A stretch of 63,265 nt of DNA, the filler included, from Anaerolineae bacterium (GTDB lineage: Bacteria; Chloroflexota; Anaerolineae; Epilineales; Epilineaceae): the NCBI GenBank assembly GCA_029262755.1. It is 6 parts of 6 records of this genome, joined end to end, with 100 filler letters (N's around TTAATTAATTAA, not from the genome) between each part and the next. Parts side by side here need not be neighbours in the genome. Positions count along the whole stretch, not along the records: positions 36,707 to 56,429 come from JAJCYU010000077.1; 5 more parts are not named here. One strand, 5' to 3'. Position 1 is the stretch's first letter. The number at the start of each line of letters is the position of its first letter. Under the pieces are notes generated by a model that worked only from the letters and a program-made list of their open reading frames with translations, did no database searches and had not been told where the DNA came from. The position numbers were made by a program, and so were the translations under genes. Below, one piece after another: positions 40,425 to 48,199 of the stretch.

Positions 40425-40638
40425 GCGCGCCGTAGCGCTGCTTCCGCCGGCCAGACGCATCGCGATTGCGCTCAGTACATGCCGGTCCGGAGCGCAATCG
40501 TCTACCATTTCCTCGTCGAGGCGAACCCGCTCTGCCGCGTACCACGCGATCTCGCGGCTTGCGGCCTAGCCCGCCTCGAGTTCCACCCCGCGACACGCCA
40601 TCCCCACACCACCCAATCGCCCACCAAGGAGATCCCCC

Positions 40639-41217
40639 ATGGCCACCATCCGCGACGGATCCAAAGGCGCGCTCGTTGTCGTCGACGTGCAGGTCGGCGT
40701 CGTGAAGGACGCGTGGGAAGCGCCGCGCGTCATCGGCAACGTCGCGCGTGCCGTCGAACGTGCGCGCGCCGCGAACCTGCCCGTGATCTGGGTTCAGCAT
40801 GCCGACGACCAGTTGGCGCACGGCAGCGATGCCTGGCAGTGGGTTCCCGAGCTTGTGCCCGCGGAGGGTGAGACGCGCATCCACAAGAACTTCAACTCAT
40901 CGTTCGAGGGCACGGAACTCGAGGCGGAACTCGCGCGGCTCGGCGCAAGCCACATCGCCCTTGCCGGCGCGGCAACCAACTGGTGCATCCGCGCCACCGC
41001 ATATGGTGCCCTGGACCGCGGCTACGACGTGACGCTGATCGAGGACGCGCACACCACAGAGACGATGGAGTTTCAAGACGGTTCGCGCATCGAGGCATCC
41101 GACGTCATTCGGGAGCTCAACATCGCGCTGAAGTGGCTGAGCTATCCCGATCGCTCCAACGCCACGGCCACTGCCGACGCCATCGACTTCGCGGGGATGG
41201 CCGGCGCGGGAGCGTAG
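40639..41217 (+). CDS. Isochorismatase-family cysteine hydrolase
   Basis: ALVVVDVQ (Asp), IHKNFNSSF (Lys), ATNWCIRAT (Cys), DAHTT. Confidence 0.92.
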   Translation: MATIRDGSKGALVVVDVQVGVVKDAWEAPRVIGNVARAVERARAANLPVIWVQHADDQLAHGSDAWQWVPELVPAEGETRIHKNFNSSFEGTELEAELARLGASHIALAGAATNWCIRATAYGALDRGYDVTLIEDAHTTETMEFQDGSRIEASDVIRELNIALKWLSYPDRSNATATADAIDFAGMAGAGA

Positions 41218-41339
41218 GTCAAACGGGGATCGACCGCCCGAGGAAGAACGCGCCCACCGTTGCGTGCGGCACAGGGTTTCGATATAACAAATACGGGGAA
41301 GGTGCTTGAAATAGGGGGGGAACCAGTTCGGGGGATTGC

Positions 41340-42422
41340 ATGCGAACGCTGAGCTCAACATCGACGAAGAGAGCGGCAACGGCTAAGAAGCCAACCACGA
41401 CCAAGAAGAGGCCGTCTACGGCGAGAAAGCCCGCAGCGGCCAAGAAGAGGCCCGCGGCGACCAAGAAGCCGACGGCAGCAAAGAAGAAGCCGGCGGCCAA
41501 ACGGAAGCCTGCCGCGGCAAAGAAGCCGGCCGCCGCGAAGAAGCGCACGCCGGCCAAGAAGCCGGCCGCGGCTCGGAAACCAGCCGCCAAGAAGAAACCG
41601 GCCGGCGCAAAGAGGAAGCCGGCCGCCAGGAAACCTGCCGCGGCTACGAAGAAGGCCTCTACTGCCAAGAAACGCACGCCGGCCAAGCGTGCTCCAGCCA
41701 AGAAGACGGCGAAGAAGCCGGCAGCGCGAAGCGTGCTCGAGAAGCGCGTGGCTGCGGTAAGCAAGACGATCGAGAACAAGATGTCGGCCGCGGCGAAGTC
41801 GATCGAGGCCACGGTGGCTGCGGCGGGGAAGTCGCTCAAGAGCGTCGGTGGGCCGTCGAAGACCACGACGAAGGCGAGACCCGCCGCGAAGCGAACGGCC
41901 AAGCAGAGGACCGCGCGCGCCAAGAAGGCCCCAGCCAAGAACCCGCTTGCCCGTAGCACCGGCAAGCCGGTCGCACACGGCGCACCGCACGTCGATCCAC
42001 CGTTCAGGCCTTACGGCGGAAAGAAGCCGTACATGTTTGTCAGCTACTCGCATCGCAACACCAAAGAGGTGTTCGAGACGATCTCAAAGCTCAAAAGCCG
42101 ACGATTCCGAATGTGGTACGACGAGGGGATCGAGCCGGGCACGGAATGGCCAGAGGTTATCGGCAAAGCGATTCACGGTTGCCACACGCTGCTTGTGTTC
42201 ATGAGCCGGCACGCATCCGAATCTCGAAACGTGCGCAACGAGATCAACATGGCCTACACGGAGGGCAAGGAGATCAAGGTCGTGTTCCTGGAGGAGACGG
42301 CGTTGACCCAAGGCCTGCAGTTGCAAGTAGGGACCGTGCAGTCCGTCAACAAATACGACCTGACGGAAGCGGACTTCTTCGACAAGCTGATGACGGGGCT
42401 TGGGACCACGCTGAGGACCTGA
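41340..42422 (+). CDS. Histone H1-like Lys/Ala-rich N-terminus fused to a TIR domain
   Basis: About 200 aa of KKPAAAKK-type repeats; TIR box1 PYMFVSYSH, MWYDEGIEPG, LVFMS, SRNVRNEI (Glu). Confidence 0.9.
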   Translation: MRTLSSTSTKRAATAKKPTTTKKRPSTARKPAAAKKRPAATKKPTAAKKKPAAKRKPAAAKKPAAAKKRTPAKKPAAARKPAAKKKPAGAKRKPAARKPAAATKKASTAKKRTPAKRAPAKKTAKKPAARSVLEKRVAAVSKTIENKMSAAAKSIEATVAAAGKSLKSVGGPSKTTTKARPAAKRTAKQRTARAKKAPAKNPLARSTGKPVAHGAPHVDPPFRPYGGKKPYMFVSYSHRNTKEVFETISKLKSRRFRMWYDEGIEPGTEWPEVIGKAIHGCHTLLVFMSRHASESRNVRNEINMAYTEGKEIKVVFLEETALTQGLQLQVGTVQSVNKYDLTEADFFDKLMTGLGTTLRT

Positions 42423-42459
42423 GCGACGCCGTCGACGTGCCGAGGTCGGCCCCGGCGAC

Positions 42460-42930
42460 ATGCTCTGCAGCGGAACCCGATCGGGCTACGAGACGGTCGA
42501 CCAACGGCGCCGGCAGCTCGGCAAAGGCGCACGCATGCACTGCGACATCGTTGTCGCCGTGGACGAGCCCGCCGGCGTGATCCTCGCGATCGGCGGCAAT
42601 GTCTACGGCACGGTCTCCCTCAAGCGCCTACCCGCCGTGCGCGAACAGGGCATCCATCTGCACGCCCGCGACGCGATGTTCGCACACCTCCAGCTCCGCG
42701 CCGACGCCATCGAGCCCGACGCGCTGCGCACCAGCGCCACGGTCCGCGCCCTTACCTGCGCCGAGGGCTTCACGCCGCCGAGCCAGGTCGAGGTCTTGGA
42801 GCTAGGGCTGCGCGGGCCGGCGTGCGGTGACGTGAGCGTGGAGGCGGGGGTCGGGGCGGAAGCCGGGGCCTCAGGTGACGTCGCGGAAGAGGGTGCCGAG
42901 TACGGGCCGCCGTTTCTCGATCTGCCGTAG
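42460..42930 (+). pseudogene. C-terminal remnant of a DUF2272-like protein
   Basis: (PGD)MLC...RMHCDIVVAVD...AIGGNV...VSLK; no N-terminal half, SD or signal; begins right after the TIR gene stop. Confidence 0.55.
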
Positions 42931-42984
42931 GGGGCTCGTTCTTCGGGTTGATTCCGCAATTCGATTTCGTGGAGCGATCGAGAC

Positions 42985-43476
42985 CTAGTCTCCGGAATCG
43001 GAAGCGACGTCATCGAGCCAGTCGGCGAACGCGCCGAGGTCATGGACGACCAGCGCGAATACCTCCGCAAGTCCCTCGACGAGCAGTCCCACTTGTTGCG
43101 GGTCGAGGTTGAACGCATAGACATTGCGCACGACATGGCGGAAGCCGCGATAGCGATCAAGTTCGTTGCGGGTCTCTGCGCTGAGAACAGCCGGCCGTAC
43201 GTCCGCGATCTCGGCCGCTAACTGAGACAGTAACGCTCGGTGCCAGTCGCCGCCTACGGGTTTGGCCTCGTCAATAACTTCTGCGATCAGTTCAAACAAC
43301 CGCTCAGCCCCAGCGTAGAATCCGTGGAGGTTTAGCGCGACAGCATCCACATACCAATCGTCGGTAGCGCGCCGACTTTCTGTCCAGATCCGCTCGGTGC
43401 GGCTCACAACATCGCCGACCTCTGCGAGGCCGGAGCGGATCCGGCCCGCTAACACTCGGTTCCCCGGCCGGCTCAC
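42985..43476 (-). CDS. HEPN (HepT-like) ribonuclease toxin
   Basis: LHGFYAGAERLF, DWHRALL, YRGFRHVVRNVY; GTG 43476 overlaps the MNT stop (GTGA). Confidence 0.85.
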   Translation of the reverse strand: MSRPGNRVLAGRIRSGLAEVGDVVSRTERIWTESRRATDDWYVDAVALNLHGFYAGAERLFELIAEVIDEAKPVGGDWHRALLSQLAAEIADVRPAVLSAETRNELDRYRGFRHVVRNVYAFNLDPQQVGLLVEGLAEVFALVVHDLGAFADWLDDVASDSGD

Positions 43477-43850
43477 AGCGCAACCCCTTCCGTCTCGATA
43501 GCCGTCGAAAGCGCGTCGGTGCAGTATTCGGCTCGGACAACGCTGATGCGCAGGTCGCGGCCGAGATCTTCGAGACGTGACAAGGCCACGAGGTGCTCTT
43601 CGGGACCAAGTCCCCAGGCCGCAAGGTCGATGTCCGAGGACGAAGAGAACCAAAGACCATGGGCGAGCGATCCGAACAGGACCACCCGTGTCGCGCCGAA
43701 CTCGTCTGCAAGCACACTCGCCGCGCGTTTGGCCACGACCAGGGCGCGCCGCTTGCGCTCGGCCAAGGCGCGCGCATCCCGTTGCGTCCGCGCCAGCATG
43801 GTGCGTCGATATCGTGTCCGCGCTTCGGCGGTCGAGTCGATCTGGGTCAT
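43473..43850 (-). CDS. Minimal nucleotidyltransferase (MntA-like) antitoxin
   Basis: VLFGSLA...SDIDL (GS...DxD) motif; coupled to the HEPN gene. Confidence 0.9.
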   Translation of the reverse strand: MTQIDSTAEARTRYRRTMLARTQRDARALAERKRRALVVAKRAASVLADEFGATRVVLFGSLAHGLWFSSSSDIDLAAWGLGPEEHLVALSRLEDLGRDLRISVVRAEYCTDALSTAIETEGVAL

Positions 43851-43856
43851 GTGGCC

Positions 43857-43862
43857 ATTGTA
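43857..43862 (-). promoter_or_regulatory. -10 box of a probable leaderless MNT-HEPN transcript
   Basis: TACAAT-6 nt-ATG(43850), no SD. Confidence 0.55.
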
Positions 43863-44050
43863 TCCCAACGCGCGAGTACCGGTGGAAGCGAGAACGCGCT
43901 GTTGATGCAGGACACGTCCAGCGCGAGCTTCGGGCTGGAGGTTGAATTCGAGGTCTCGATCCGGCGGGCTTGCGGCAAAAACGGTCCGCGCTAAGGTCCA
44001 GTCTCTATTTTCTCCCACGATCGGGATCGTCCGGCTCATTTGGAGACCTC

Positions 44051-46818: not shown

Positions 46819-47829
46819 ATGCCGATGAAGAATGCCGCGCGCGCGATGGTCTTCACCCTCGTTCTGCTGCTGACCCTGCCGATGACGATCACCTATTTCG
46901 TGGCGTACTATCTCGTGATCGTGCTGCTTAACCGGCGCCGTGGGATCTCCGGCACGGCCTACGAGCCCTTCACCGCCCGGCTGCTCATGCACGACGTCGG
47001 CGAGCGCGAGGACGAGGCCGCCGCACGGCTGGCGCGGGCATTGCCGGCGACCGCGCCCTGGCTGTGGCCCTTGATGTCCTTGCCGATCCAATGGGCCGTC
47101 CGGCTGAGCGGCACGACCCCGGCGCTGCTGCGCTACCCGCCGGAGCACCCACCCGGCCTGATGGCCCTGATGACGCTGCGCACCGAGTTCTTCGACGAGA
47201 CCCTGCGCGAGGCTCTGGGGCAGGTCGAGCAATTGGTCATTCTCGGCGCCGGTTGGGATACCCGCTGCTATGACCTGCCCACAGACGCGGGCGTCCGCTT
47301 CTTCGAGGTGGACGCTCCGGCTACCAGCCGCGCCAAGCAAGCGGCTGTGGCCAAGGCCGGCCTCGACGCCGACCACGTGACCTTCGTGGCCACCGACTTC
47401 AACGAGCGCACGTGGCTCGAGGCCCTCGTTGAGCACGGCTTCGAAGCGAACCGGCCCACCTTCGTGCTGTGGGAGGGCGTAAGCATGTATCTCGAAGATC
47501 ACGCGGTTGACGCCACGTTGCGCACGGTGGCGTCCTTCCCGCCCGGCAGCCGCATCGCCTTCGACTACCTGGCCGAAGAGCTCGTGCGCGGCGAGCCACC
47601 TTTTCGCCTGCTCGGTCCCTACATGACGGCAAGCATCGGCCTGACCTACGGTGAGCACATGGTCTTCGGCCTGCCGACCAAGCCCGACGCGAAGACGGCG
47701 GCGTCGGCCTTCGTGGCGGCCCACGGCCTCACGCTGCGCCGCTACGCCGCCATCGGCCACAGCGACGAAGGCCAGGTGCCATGGTACGGCTTCGTGCTTG
47801 CGGGGGCGGGGGCGGAGGCGGACGAATAG
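46819..47829 (+). CDS. LCM/Ppm1-type SAM-dependent methyltransferase
   Basis: LRTEFFD, QLVILGAGWDTR, FEVD, WEGVSMYL, FDY. Confidence 0.9.
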   Translation: MPMKNAARAMVFTLVLLLTLPMTITYFVAYYLVIVLLNRRRGISGTAYEPFTARLLMHDVGEREDEAAARLARALPATAPWLWPLMSLPIQWAVRLSGTTPALLRYPPEHPPGLMALMTLRTEFFDETLREALGQVEQLVILGAGWDTRCYDLPTDAGVRFFEVDAPATSRAKQAAVAKAGLDADHVTFVATDFNERTWLEALVEHGFEANRPTFVLWEGVSMYLEDHAVDATLRTVASFPPGSRIAFDYLAEELVRGEPPFRLLGPYMTASIGLTYGEHMVFGLPTKPDAKTAASAFVAAHGLTLRRYAAIGHSDEGQVPWYGFVLAGAGAEADE

Positions 47830-47990
47830 GGGCGACGGCGTCCGCGACGCGGATGCGAGCGGAGGCGATCCCAACAAGGGCCTGAGTTACAACTACCTCT
47901 GGTTGCGCAACTGCGTGTGTGTCGCAAACTCGGCACACCCGCGGCGCCTACCGGGTCGATTCGCCGACACGCCGTACGTACAACATACAT

Positions 47991-48199
47991 ACGGACGATC
48001 TTCGCTTCGCCTGGGACCGGCGCAGGAGCTTTGCGAACGCTACCAAGAGCGCGTATTGCGCCTGGATCGCGAGACGATCGCCTACTTCAAGGACATGGCA
48101 GCCGAGACCGGCATCCCATACCAGAGCCTGATCAACCTCTACCTGCGCGACTGCGTGACCACGAAGCGCAAGCTGAATATGGCGTGGGGGAAGCGGTAG
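47991..48199 (+). pseudogene. Collapsed BrnT/BrnA toxin-antitoxin remnant
   Basis: ACG-DDLRFAWDRRRSFANATK (BrnT-like N-terminus, start mutated) joined out of frame to LRLDRETIAYFKDMAAETGIPYQSLINLYLRDC (BrnA-like C-terminus). Confidence 0.7.

Follow-up and report, generated by a model that had tools for sequence, protein, structure and literature searches.

In Thoeris, the TIR protein ThsB makes an ADP-ribose-derived signal that is bound by the SLOG domain of ThsA, and Thoeris loci often have two TIR genes. TIR enzymes generally need self-association, and TIR NADases are activated by clustering. The H1-like polycations HC2/HctB (PF07382) and AlgP, together with the C-terminal tails of actinobacterial HU, are K/A/P-rich, acid-free, repeat-built, and disordered, and nucleic acid condensers of the H1 type are likewise repeat-built and acid-free, besides being long, charge-dense, and nonhydrophobic. 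Thoeris and related TIR signaling systems are being cataloged at a rapid pace. How TIR proteins sense infection is mostly unknown; known effectors kill cells or deplete metabolites. Here we describe a gene that codes for a TIR domain behind a long polycationic tail, located at positions 41340 to 42422 (plus strand) of a 63,265-nucleotide stretch of DNA (the window) from an Anaerolineae bacterium (GenBank assembly GCA_029262755.1, here G000). The window consists of contigs of this metagenome-assembled genome (MAG) joined by runs of N, and the TIR gene lies on contig C77 (36707 to 56429). The protein is a member of a distinct clade of polybasic-tailed, C-terminal-TIR proteins, and in almost every informative locus of that clade the TIR gene is the second of a two-gene operon, directly 3' of a gene for a TPR-S/SLOG/cyclase protein. 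The overall reading that we favor, and hold with moderate confidence, is that this clade takes part in Thoeris-like signaling with its SLOG partner and that the window copy is a transferred orphan.

A clade of polycation-tailed TIR proteins and its partner gene

The window gene is an open reading frame (ORF) of 360 amino acids with an ATG start. Its C-terminal part matches Pfam TIR_2 (PF13676) over residues 233 to 342 (E 4.3e-15; 56.7 bits against a cutoff of 28), and two further TIR families also exceed their cutoffs, ThsB_TIR (E 7.6e-6; 26.7 bits against 21.2) and TIR (E 6.5e-5). These are the only Pfam families on the protein, which has no APAZ, STING, SAVED, CARF, or cyclic nucleotide (cNMP)-binding domain. 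AlphaFold2, run with an alignment of 59 sequences, models residues 222 to 360 confidently (pLDDT 72 to 97) as an alternation of strands and helices, and Foldseek returned 56 matches in the PDB at E <=0.001, of which those listed are TIR domains: SARM1 (E 1.7e-5), EcThsB (9.6e-5), a Bacillus cereus TIR (1.4e-4), RPP1, SPARTA TIR-APAZ, MyD88, and others, at 11 to 20% identity (E 1.7e-5 to 1e-3 for SARM1, SPARTA, ThsB, and RPP1). Model and structural matches together identify the flavodoxin-like TIR fold. Twenty-two columns are invariant in the alignment, among them S235, Y236, H238, the W259-G263 block, and S295-R-N-V-R-N-E301. When known TIRs were compared by sequence, only Cat1, a CRISPR-associated TIR, was matched (E 0.17), in an alignment that pairs Glu301 with the CWDE glutamate, the catalytic residue of Cat1. 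PADLOC gave weak Aga_TIR matches alone (E 1.5e-3), and the TIR domain had no match in NCBIfam. The domain has the look of an active, NAD+-processing TIR and falls outside the catalogued defense TIR families.

The remaining N-terminal region (residues 1 to 214) contains 51 K, 19 R, 59 A, and 22 P, with no D and 3 E (net charge, +67; isoelectric point [pI], 12), while the TIR part has a net charge of +1. AlphaFold2 assigns no secondary structure to residues 1 to 215 (pLDDT 48 to 59). About 12 in-register, degenerate units of 18/21 nucleotides (nt) that code for K-K-P-A-A-A can be followed from 41388 to 41684 (approximately residues 17 to 115). Downstream of them lies a segment with an 11-residue period, confined to the window protein and its closest homolog, P0001, which has four such 11-mers. 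The helical hydrophobic moment of this segment is 1.0 to 1.06, compared with 0.38 +/- 0.20 in 2,000 shuffles (maximum, 1.14), and AlphaFold2 predicts no helix in it (pLDDT about 50); it could serve self-association or surface binding. The window tail has no Pfam match at E <=0.01, HC2 PF07382 included, and HC2 is present as a precomputed annotation on 4 of the 111 homologs found with the TIR part.

An initial annotation, made from the DNA alone, had described this gene as a histone-H1-like polycation fused to a TIR domain with an intact catalytic Glu. The ORF, its composition, and the TIR_2 match confirm the fusion, the motifs FVSYSH, WYDEGIEPG, and SRNVRNEI are all in place, and the putative catalytic Glu is invariant in the 59 aligned relatives. 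The description of the tail needs some correction. The approximately 200 residues of repeats reduce to the tandem units just mentioned, within a region that is basic and acid-poor throughout, and the short helical segment is absent from the AlphaFold2 model, although its hydrophobic moment is above that of shuffles.

A start at an internal Met, with no tail made, was one way for the annotation to fail. It is unlikely, since there is no in-frame ATG, GTG, or TTG between codons 2 and 131 (the first is codon 132), GC content at third codon positions (GC3) hardly differs between the tail (0.80) and the TIR part (0.79), 71 of 83 homologous tails have no internal Met, and the ratio of nonsynonymous to synonymous substitution rates (dN/dS) in the tails is below 1. 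This ratio was 0.12 to 0.55 in tails and 0.02 to 0.22 in TIR parts over 63 pairs of related loci, pairs that are not independent, often have dS of >1, and carry uncertain low-complexity alignments; the least saturated of them gave about 0.3 for the tail against 0.07 to 0.13 for the TIR part. The exact 360-residue sequence is absent from a collection of 15 billion proteins, and there was no 100% match among the 111 proteins of the TIR-part search. An antisense shadow ORF of 248 amino acids occupies 41219 to 41965, and gene callers may have skipped the window ORF or placed its start elsewhere.

The 111 proteins found with the TIR part range from 198 to 630 amino acids. In an exhaustive search, 13,452 representatives matched at E <=1e-3, of which 212 reached E <=1e-30. 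We defined a polybasic tail as an N-terminal region of at least 40 amino acids, with a K+R fraction of at least 0.22 and a D+E fraction of at most 0.06, in a protein with the TIR domain at the extreme C terminus. Homologs without the tail would also have spoken against the annotation. By this definition homologs do keep it: 84 of 247 fetched relatives have it, including essentially all of the closest ones (TIR identity, 51 to 75%), and there are 60 polybasic-tail TIR ORFs in 76 fetched metagenome loci. In a recount of 83 tails, the minimum, median, and maximum were 41, 162, and 223 residues for length, 0.25, 0.39, and 0.55 for K+R, and +13, +62, and +106 for net charge. The tails cannot be aligned in sequence, high-GC members being built of K/A/P and low-GC members of K/R/S/T. 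The tail is a translated, fast-evolving module that is constrained in composition and not in sequence.

In the maximum-likelihood tree, the clade of C-terminal TIRs (support, 100/99), the polybasic-dominated clade (99/96), and the pair of the window protein and P0001 (100/99; 75% identity in the TIR domain) are all well supported, and the few named clade members are Spirochaetota. Distribution is patchy, with 17 of 401 sampled species-representative genomes carrying the TIR at E <=1e-30 in the phylum of one named relative, a Spirochaetales MAG. Within the clade, the tail is replaced by multipass transmembrane N termini in P0073, P0080, P0082, and P0083, and P0085, P0163, and P0182 have transmembrane helices followed by a polybasic linker of 50 to 70 amino acids. 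One locus (L087:1642-3602) has two TIR genes in tandem, one polybasic-tailed and the other with transmembrane helices and a basic linker.

The neighborhood of the TIR gene in relatives is where the annotation, which had proposed a single-gene system, departs from what we found: a solitary gene describes the window copy and is wrong for the clade. ORF clustering gave one dominant neighbor family, at position -1 and on the same strand, in 41 of the 60 metagenome loci. Scored with tblastn, a count that includes loci in which only the C-terminal end of the partner is seen up to the contig edge, the partner is present in 45 of the 60, 13 have too little upstream DNA, and 2 (L074 and L083) lack it, which makes it adjacent in 45 of 47 informative loci. 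Partner stop and TIR start are separated by -47 to +30 nt. The partner is also found in L077, in which the TIR ORF runs off the contig, and in 12 of the 13 genome loci fetched, the other having no room for it (12/12 informative). Even an N-terminal-TIR relative (L095) has a 40%-identical partner upstream, so the constant pair is the TIR and the SLOG protein, with a variable TIR appendage. As for the two exceptions, the TIR of L083 is the same as that of L084, in which a 31%-identical partner-like gene lies about 5.4 kb downstream. In L074 (4774-9406; GC content of the contig, 0.29), the partner-less polybasic TIR stands between a caspase-like (Peptidase_C14) protein and, downstream, a 613-amino-acid protein. 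We considered the latter as an alternative SLOG partner; its faint SLOG-like N terminus (hhalign E 0.005; probability, 6.8%) makes it a lead only.

The partner has approximately 650 to 770 amino acids and matches Pfam TPR-S (an ASK1-like TPR sensor), MAP3K_TRAF_bd, and Guanylate_cyc. Its AlphaFold2 model (pLDDT 86.4; pTM 0.86) aligned by VIA-align to the central regulatory region of ASK1 (Z 21.4; 241 residues aligned within the model range 5 to 396), to the YpsA/DUF1273 structure 2nx2 (Z 18.4; root mean square deviation, 3.1; 161 of 178 aligned; residues 257 to 444), and to the class III cyclase CyaB (Z 19.7; residues 466 to 649). The SLOG part has an invariant G-x-D signature (G309, D311), a motif to which Brzozowski et al. 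(PMC6459960) attach importance for the binding of ligands by YpsA-clade proteins. Iyer et al. (2022; PMC9503650) assign the SLOG domains that sense cyclic ADP-ribose (cADPR) to the YpsA-like clade and describe YpsA-clade domains as sensing variant cADPR. Since the partner is a basic protein too (median net charge, +14; pI 9.2), it is an unlikely target of the tail.

Genes with cNMP-binding domains stand beside the operon in some Spirochaete-type loci (6 of 123 scanned neighbors). In L025 (7645-11763), L028 (7744-9990), L036 (7567-9840), and L083 (7697-10447), these domains occur in fusions with SulP-STAS or MMPL transporters or belong to a 622-amino-acid protein. Such neighbors could be receivers of the cyclase output, and coincidence in cNMP-rich genomes could also explain them.

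The partner-less copy in the window and its surroundings

Within the assembled data, the window copy has no partner. None was found in the window by tblastn (E <=1e-4), the best candidate for a remnant of the partner C terminus 5' of the TIR gene had an E value of 0.078 and was on the wrong strand, and profile hidden Markov models of the partner SLOG and TPR-S regions had no match in a six-frame translation of the whole assembly, in which generic cyclase domains alone matched. The adjacent effector with a signal-binding domain that is typical of Thoeris is present in the family and absent at this copy. A close homolog is absent in 40 of 40 related genomes (best E 4.3e-7; 30% identity), and in 401 genomes of its own phylum, matches at E <=1e-25 are limited to G000 and one other genome (43% identical; 824-amino-acid ORF). 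The host itself looks Chloroflexota-like, as its RpoB is 85% identical to that of Chloroflexi bacterium CFX6 and 78 to 80% identical to those of Litorilinea, Caldilineaceae, and Anaerolineae. The window protein and P0001 nest inside the polybasic clade, whose remaining members carry the partner wherever their context is known.

A probable rearrangement or insertion breakpoint immediately downstream of the TIR gene points in the same direction. A 243-nt contig from run X3, which belongs to another study, matches 42439 to 42645 with 1 difference, and its sequence before 42439 is unlike that of the window and open in the DUF2272 frame, while in the window this frame is closed by a stop 13 codons upstream; the breakpoint is weakly supported in that it comes from one contig of depth 2. 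Runs X2 and X3 contain near-identical DUF2272 pieces (42439 to 42930) and no piece of the TIR gene, and in general the runs beyond the probable source run matched short repeat-like pieces and the DUF2272 part only. The diverging contig, the closed frame, and the partial DUF2272 profile lead us to place the breakpoint 16 nt after the TIR stop, which suggests that a TIR-only piece of approximately 1.1 kb was inserted into, or recombined beside, a DUF2272 gene. Given the lack of a partner on the contig and in the assembly and the adjoining 5'-truncated DUF2272 gene, the copy was probably acquired alone, by horizontal transfer into a Chloroflexota-like genome. Its GC3 and K/A/P codon style are like those of the host, so the transfer would be old or from a GC-rich donor; a candidate donor lineage is that of L077, with a contig of GC content 0.65, a 64%-identical TIR, and the partner present. 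The TIR gene lies between the two copies of an exact 14-nt direct repeat (41173 to 41186 and 42700 to 42713); by a rough estimate, chance would give about 0.06 such pairs. As a mobile-element border it is the sole candidate, and it does not coincide with the breakpoint at 42438/42439.

Contig C77 has 19,723 bp and a GC content of 0.66, compared with 0.668 for the genome, and the neighbors of the TIR gene are unrelated accessory genes (a methyltransferase, an FG-GAP protein, an RCC1-repeat protein, an alcohol dehydrogenase, an LCM methyltransferase, and others). A separate assembly of the probable source run covers 40600 to 42950 without differences, so the gene order is no artifact of one assembler, although both assemblies come from the same sample and are not independent. 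The leader of the TIR gene has no sigma-70-like promoter in a consensus scan. Features around the gene are listed in Table 1.

Table 1. Features at and around the TIR gene, in window coordinates
Feature	Positions	Strand	Evidence and remarks
Isochorismatase-family hydrolase, in the position of the relatives' partner	40639..41217	+	Pfam Isochorismatase, E 2.2e-38
Intergenic leader of the TIR gene	41218..41339	+	G-rich Shine-Dalgarno-like GGGGGA, 4 nt 5' of ATG
Coding sequence of the polycation-tail-TIR protein	41340..42422	+	ORF; Pfam TIR_2; GC3 0.80 (tail), 0.79 (TIR part)
K/A/P-rich degenerate 6- to 7-residue repeats	41340..41732	+	Residues 1-131; residues 1-136 net +51; TRF periods 18/21/36/39 nt
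11-residue-periodic amphipathic segment	41748..41867	+	Residues 137-176; 33-nt period x 2.8 copies at 41748-41841
Second basic stretch, linker to the TIR domain	41868..41981	+	Residues 177-214; net +12; composition, low pLDDT
TIR domain, including conserved PF..Y.G..PY lead-in	41982..42419	+	Residues 215-360; AlphaFold2, Foldseek, 22 invariant columns
Codon of Glu301, putative catalytic Glu in the S-R-N-V-R-N-E motif	42240..42242	+	Invariant in 59 aligned relatives
Probable rearrangement/insertion breakpoint	42438..42439	.	16 nt past the TIR stop codon
5'-truncated DUF2272-like ORF (remnant)	42460..42930	+	Pfam E 2.4e-6, 28 bits vs cutoff 27; profile positions 114-171/191
HepT-like HEPN toxin	42985..43653	-	HepT-like_2, E 3.6e-34
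MNT nucleotidyltransferase	43473..44039	-	NTP_transf_2, E 1.3e-4

The MNT-HEPN pair next to which the gene had been placed is real (PADLOC PDC-S09 at E 1.7e-4; NCBIfam MntA at 20.8 bits, under the cutoff of 60), but the DUF2272 remnant stands between it and the TIR gene, and the link is not conserved, being absent from the neighbor clusters shared by at least three loci. The pair is an independent toxin-antitoxin-like unit, and we rejected it as a partner. The isochorismatase was likewise discarded as an NAD-salvage partner, as it is not a recurrent neighbor in homologous loci. Elsewhere in the window, an ORF at 47651 to 48199 has weak BrnA/CopG antitoxin-like matches under the Pfam cutoffs, and contig C78 (56530 to 60169; 3,640 bp) has a GC content of 0.39 against 0.668 for the genome and may be misbinned or foreign.

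The genome, in 428 contigs, has nine further TIR_2 matches (on C277, C218, C223, C30, C315, C255, C184, C282, and C8), seven of them in open frames of 1,015 to 1,362 amino acids and the remaining two in frames of 121 and 474. The one examined (L112:437-4471, minus strand) is a single protein of 1,344 amino acids that combines TIR_2, a class III cyclase, AAA/NB-ARC, and TPR, so the TIR-cyclase link recurs in this genome as a fusion.

Proposed mechanism and competing explanations

In length, charge density, paucity of acidic and hydrophobic residues, and repeat build, the tails resemble the H1-type condensers, and the tail likely binds a polyanion. A TIR with a long disordered polycation as its only appendage suggests activation by condensation on such a polyanion, a plausible switch given that TIR enzymes need self-association. 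We propose that the tail would provide clustering or localization in this way, with nucleic acid as the leading, though unproven, ligand and anionic membrane or polyphosphate as alternatives. By analogy with Thoeris, the TIR domains, once brought together, would consume NAD+ and make a signal, which the SLOG/TPR-S module of the partner would read, switching on the partner cyclase. A cyclase output behind SLOG and TPR-S suggests cross talk between NAD+-derived and cyclic nucleotide messengers. The window copy could at most work by itself as an NADase or signal maker tethered to a polyanion, or it would have no output.

A defense role is a reasonable guess, as patchy distribution, transfer between phyla, and the pairing of TIR and SLOG are typical of defense systems. 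Phage origin was considered and set aside: there was one distant IMG/VR viral-contig match (37% identity), and the family is not evidently phage-borne.

Several observations weigh against this picture. PADLOC gave no ThsB-type match for the window protein, and of the 123 neighbor ORFs of homologous loci scanned with it (136 were listed), 11 matched at E <=1e-8, six of them through cNMP-binding domains and the other five as mad2, mad3/8, a caspase, MNT, and a MotB-like protein. With 5 non-cNMP defense matches in 123, a defense-island context is unsupported. The equivalence of Glu301 to a known catalytic Glu is weak, drawn as it is from the Cat1 alignment at E 0.17 and from invariance within the family, and the Thoeris analogy is drawn from the domains encoded and the order of the genes. 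A DNA-binding tail would be in contact with the chromosome at all times and so lacks a discriminating trigger, and the transmembrane helices that replace or precede the tail in some clade members are as compatible with a membrane surface as with nucleic acid. As for the window copy, the MAG is 84% complete, so its partner could sit in unassembled DNA, and the long stem of the window protein and P0001 (0.42) may mean changed or relaxed constraint.

A more elaborate version of this reading, which is possible and which we put forward tentatively, makes the tail-TIR and the TPR-S/SLOG/cyclase protein a Thoeris-like class, as yet undescribed, in which one nucleotide messenger is converted into a second. 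Here the tail would condense on nucleic acid or another polyanion freed at infection or stress and cluster the TIRs, the NAD+-derived product would gate the cyclase through its SLOG/TPR-S module, and the targets of the cNMP would be cNMP-binding proteins, for example the transporter fusions beside some loci; the window gene would be the sensor half, taken up without its partner by a distant phylum.

Among the competing explanations, the one that survives best returns to a single gene at this locus, an abortive-infection NADase whose H1-like tail oligomerizes on phage or foreign nucleic acid and which depletes NAD+ with no receptor involved. The window gene does stand alone, clustering is what activates TIR NADases, the closest solved folds include those of the NAD+-depleting SARM1 and SPARTA, and all 22 invariant TIR residues are present. 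We nevertheless consider it unlikely. The clade is otherwise a two-gene one, so the ancestral role was probably signal production for the SLOG receptor, the only defense genes nearby are the unrelated MNT-HEPN pair, and the model gives no account of how self DNA is ignored.

Even less probable, in our view, is that the tail is a membrane tether that lays the TIR on the anionic surface of the inner membrane, as the transmembrane anchors of sister proteins would, with the 11-mers aiding lipid binding. The transmembrane N termini of some clade members, alone or with a polybasic linker, fit such a tether, as do the tandem occurrence of both types in L087 and the amphipathic moment of the 11-mers (1.0 against 0.38 in shuffles). 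However, tails of 41 to 223 residues with 25 to 55% K+R and almost no hydrophobic residues far exceed the known electrostatic membrane anchors in length; HC2 is annotated on 4 of 111 homologs; and the 11-mer segment is limited to the window protein and P0001.

The polarity could also be the opposite one, as in Pycsar, with the partner cyclase making a cyclic nucleotide on infection and the TIR acting as an NAD+-depleting effector. In PADLOC, the partner cyclase matches PycC weakly (E 6e-6 to 4e-3), it keeps, by eye and consensus, motifs of the metal and transition-state types, and some loci have cNMP-binding-domain genes beside them. On the other hand, Pfam finds no cNMP- or other ligand-binding domain on the TIR protein, and two sensor modules, TPR-S and the YpsA-like SLOG, are predicted on the cyclase protein. 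With sensors on one protein and none on the other, it is the cyclase protein that looks like the receiver, and we regard the opposite polarity as very unlikely.

Least likely of all is a functionless orphan, a recently transferred fragment of the two-gene system that is intact by chance and heading for decay, as the missing partner, the truncated flanking DUF2272 gene, the long stem to the window protein and P0001, and the absence of the exact protein from the large collection would allow, because the 360-codon frame is intact with all invariant residues kept, GC3 is host-like at 0.80 and the K/A/P codon style GC-rich (which implies long residence or a GC-rich donor), and the 11-mer segment is common to P0001, so that at least two lineages have retained the subtype.

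On the preferred reading, the orphan copy indicates that the TIR half can move between phyla alone. The window gene is also a simple one-gene reagent with which to ask whether TIR enzymes can be turned on by a polycationic tail.

Relation to known systems

The main new result is the partner gene of the polybasic-tailed TIRs, which we place within Thoeris-like TIR signaling. In a literature search, we found no description of a polybasic-tailed TIR or of an operon of TIR and TPR-S/SLOG/cyclase. Yirmiya et al. (2025; bioRxiv 10.64898/2025.12.03.692087) name 29 putative Thoeris types in their main text, with effector classes that comprise DNases, RNases, phospholipases, hydrolases, transmembrane proteins, and domains of unknown function. 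That main text names no adenylate or guanylate cyclase effector and no polybasic TIR (its three uses of the word cyclase concern other matters), and its figure or tables may list the configuration. The main text of Brzozowski et al. (2019; PMC6459960) has no occurrence of TIR and no polybasic tail, while its legend to Fig. 1A lists A/G cyclase among the contexts of the YpsA family, so the SLOG-cyclase link has probably been seen before. The partner architecture or the operon may already be drawn in comparative genomics figures (Burroughs et al. 2015; Burroughs and Aravind 2020).

Compared with the TIR effectors of SPARTA, CBASS, and type III CRISPR systems, the window protein differs in its N-terminal 214 residues, which are disordered and of low complexity, where those effectors would have an APAZ, STING, SAVED, or CARF domain. 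The tail is like the H1-like polycations in being K/A/P-rich, nearly free of acids, repeat-built, and disordered, a likeness of sequence, and unlike them in having no Pfam match and in being fused to an enzyme domain. With Pycsar (PycC with PycTIR or PycTM), the family has in common a class III cyclase gene beside a TIR gene and the weak PycC matches, and it differs in having the sensors, TPR-S and SLOG, on the cyclase protein and no cyclic nucleotide-binding domain on the TIR protein.

The closest resemblance is to Thoeris itself. In type VIII, as described in the main text of Yirmiya et al., the effector ThsI combines a CMP-hydrolase-like domain with a TPR domain, the latter predicted for TIR signaling by the Aravind group, so that there, too, a TIR stands beside an effector with a TPR domain. 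With type I (the TIR protein ThsB and the SIR2-SLOG protein ThsA), the shared features are a gene for a small TIR protein beside one for a YpsA-clade SLOG protein, a ThsB_TIR match over the cutoff, a patchy distribution (17/401), and two TIR genes in one locus (L087). The differences lie in the TIR protein, with its polycationic disordered tail of 41 to 223 amino acids and no ThsB match in PADLOC, in the partner-less state of the window copy, and in the output of the partner, which is a class III cyclase with TPR-S in place of SIR2.

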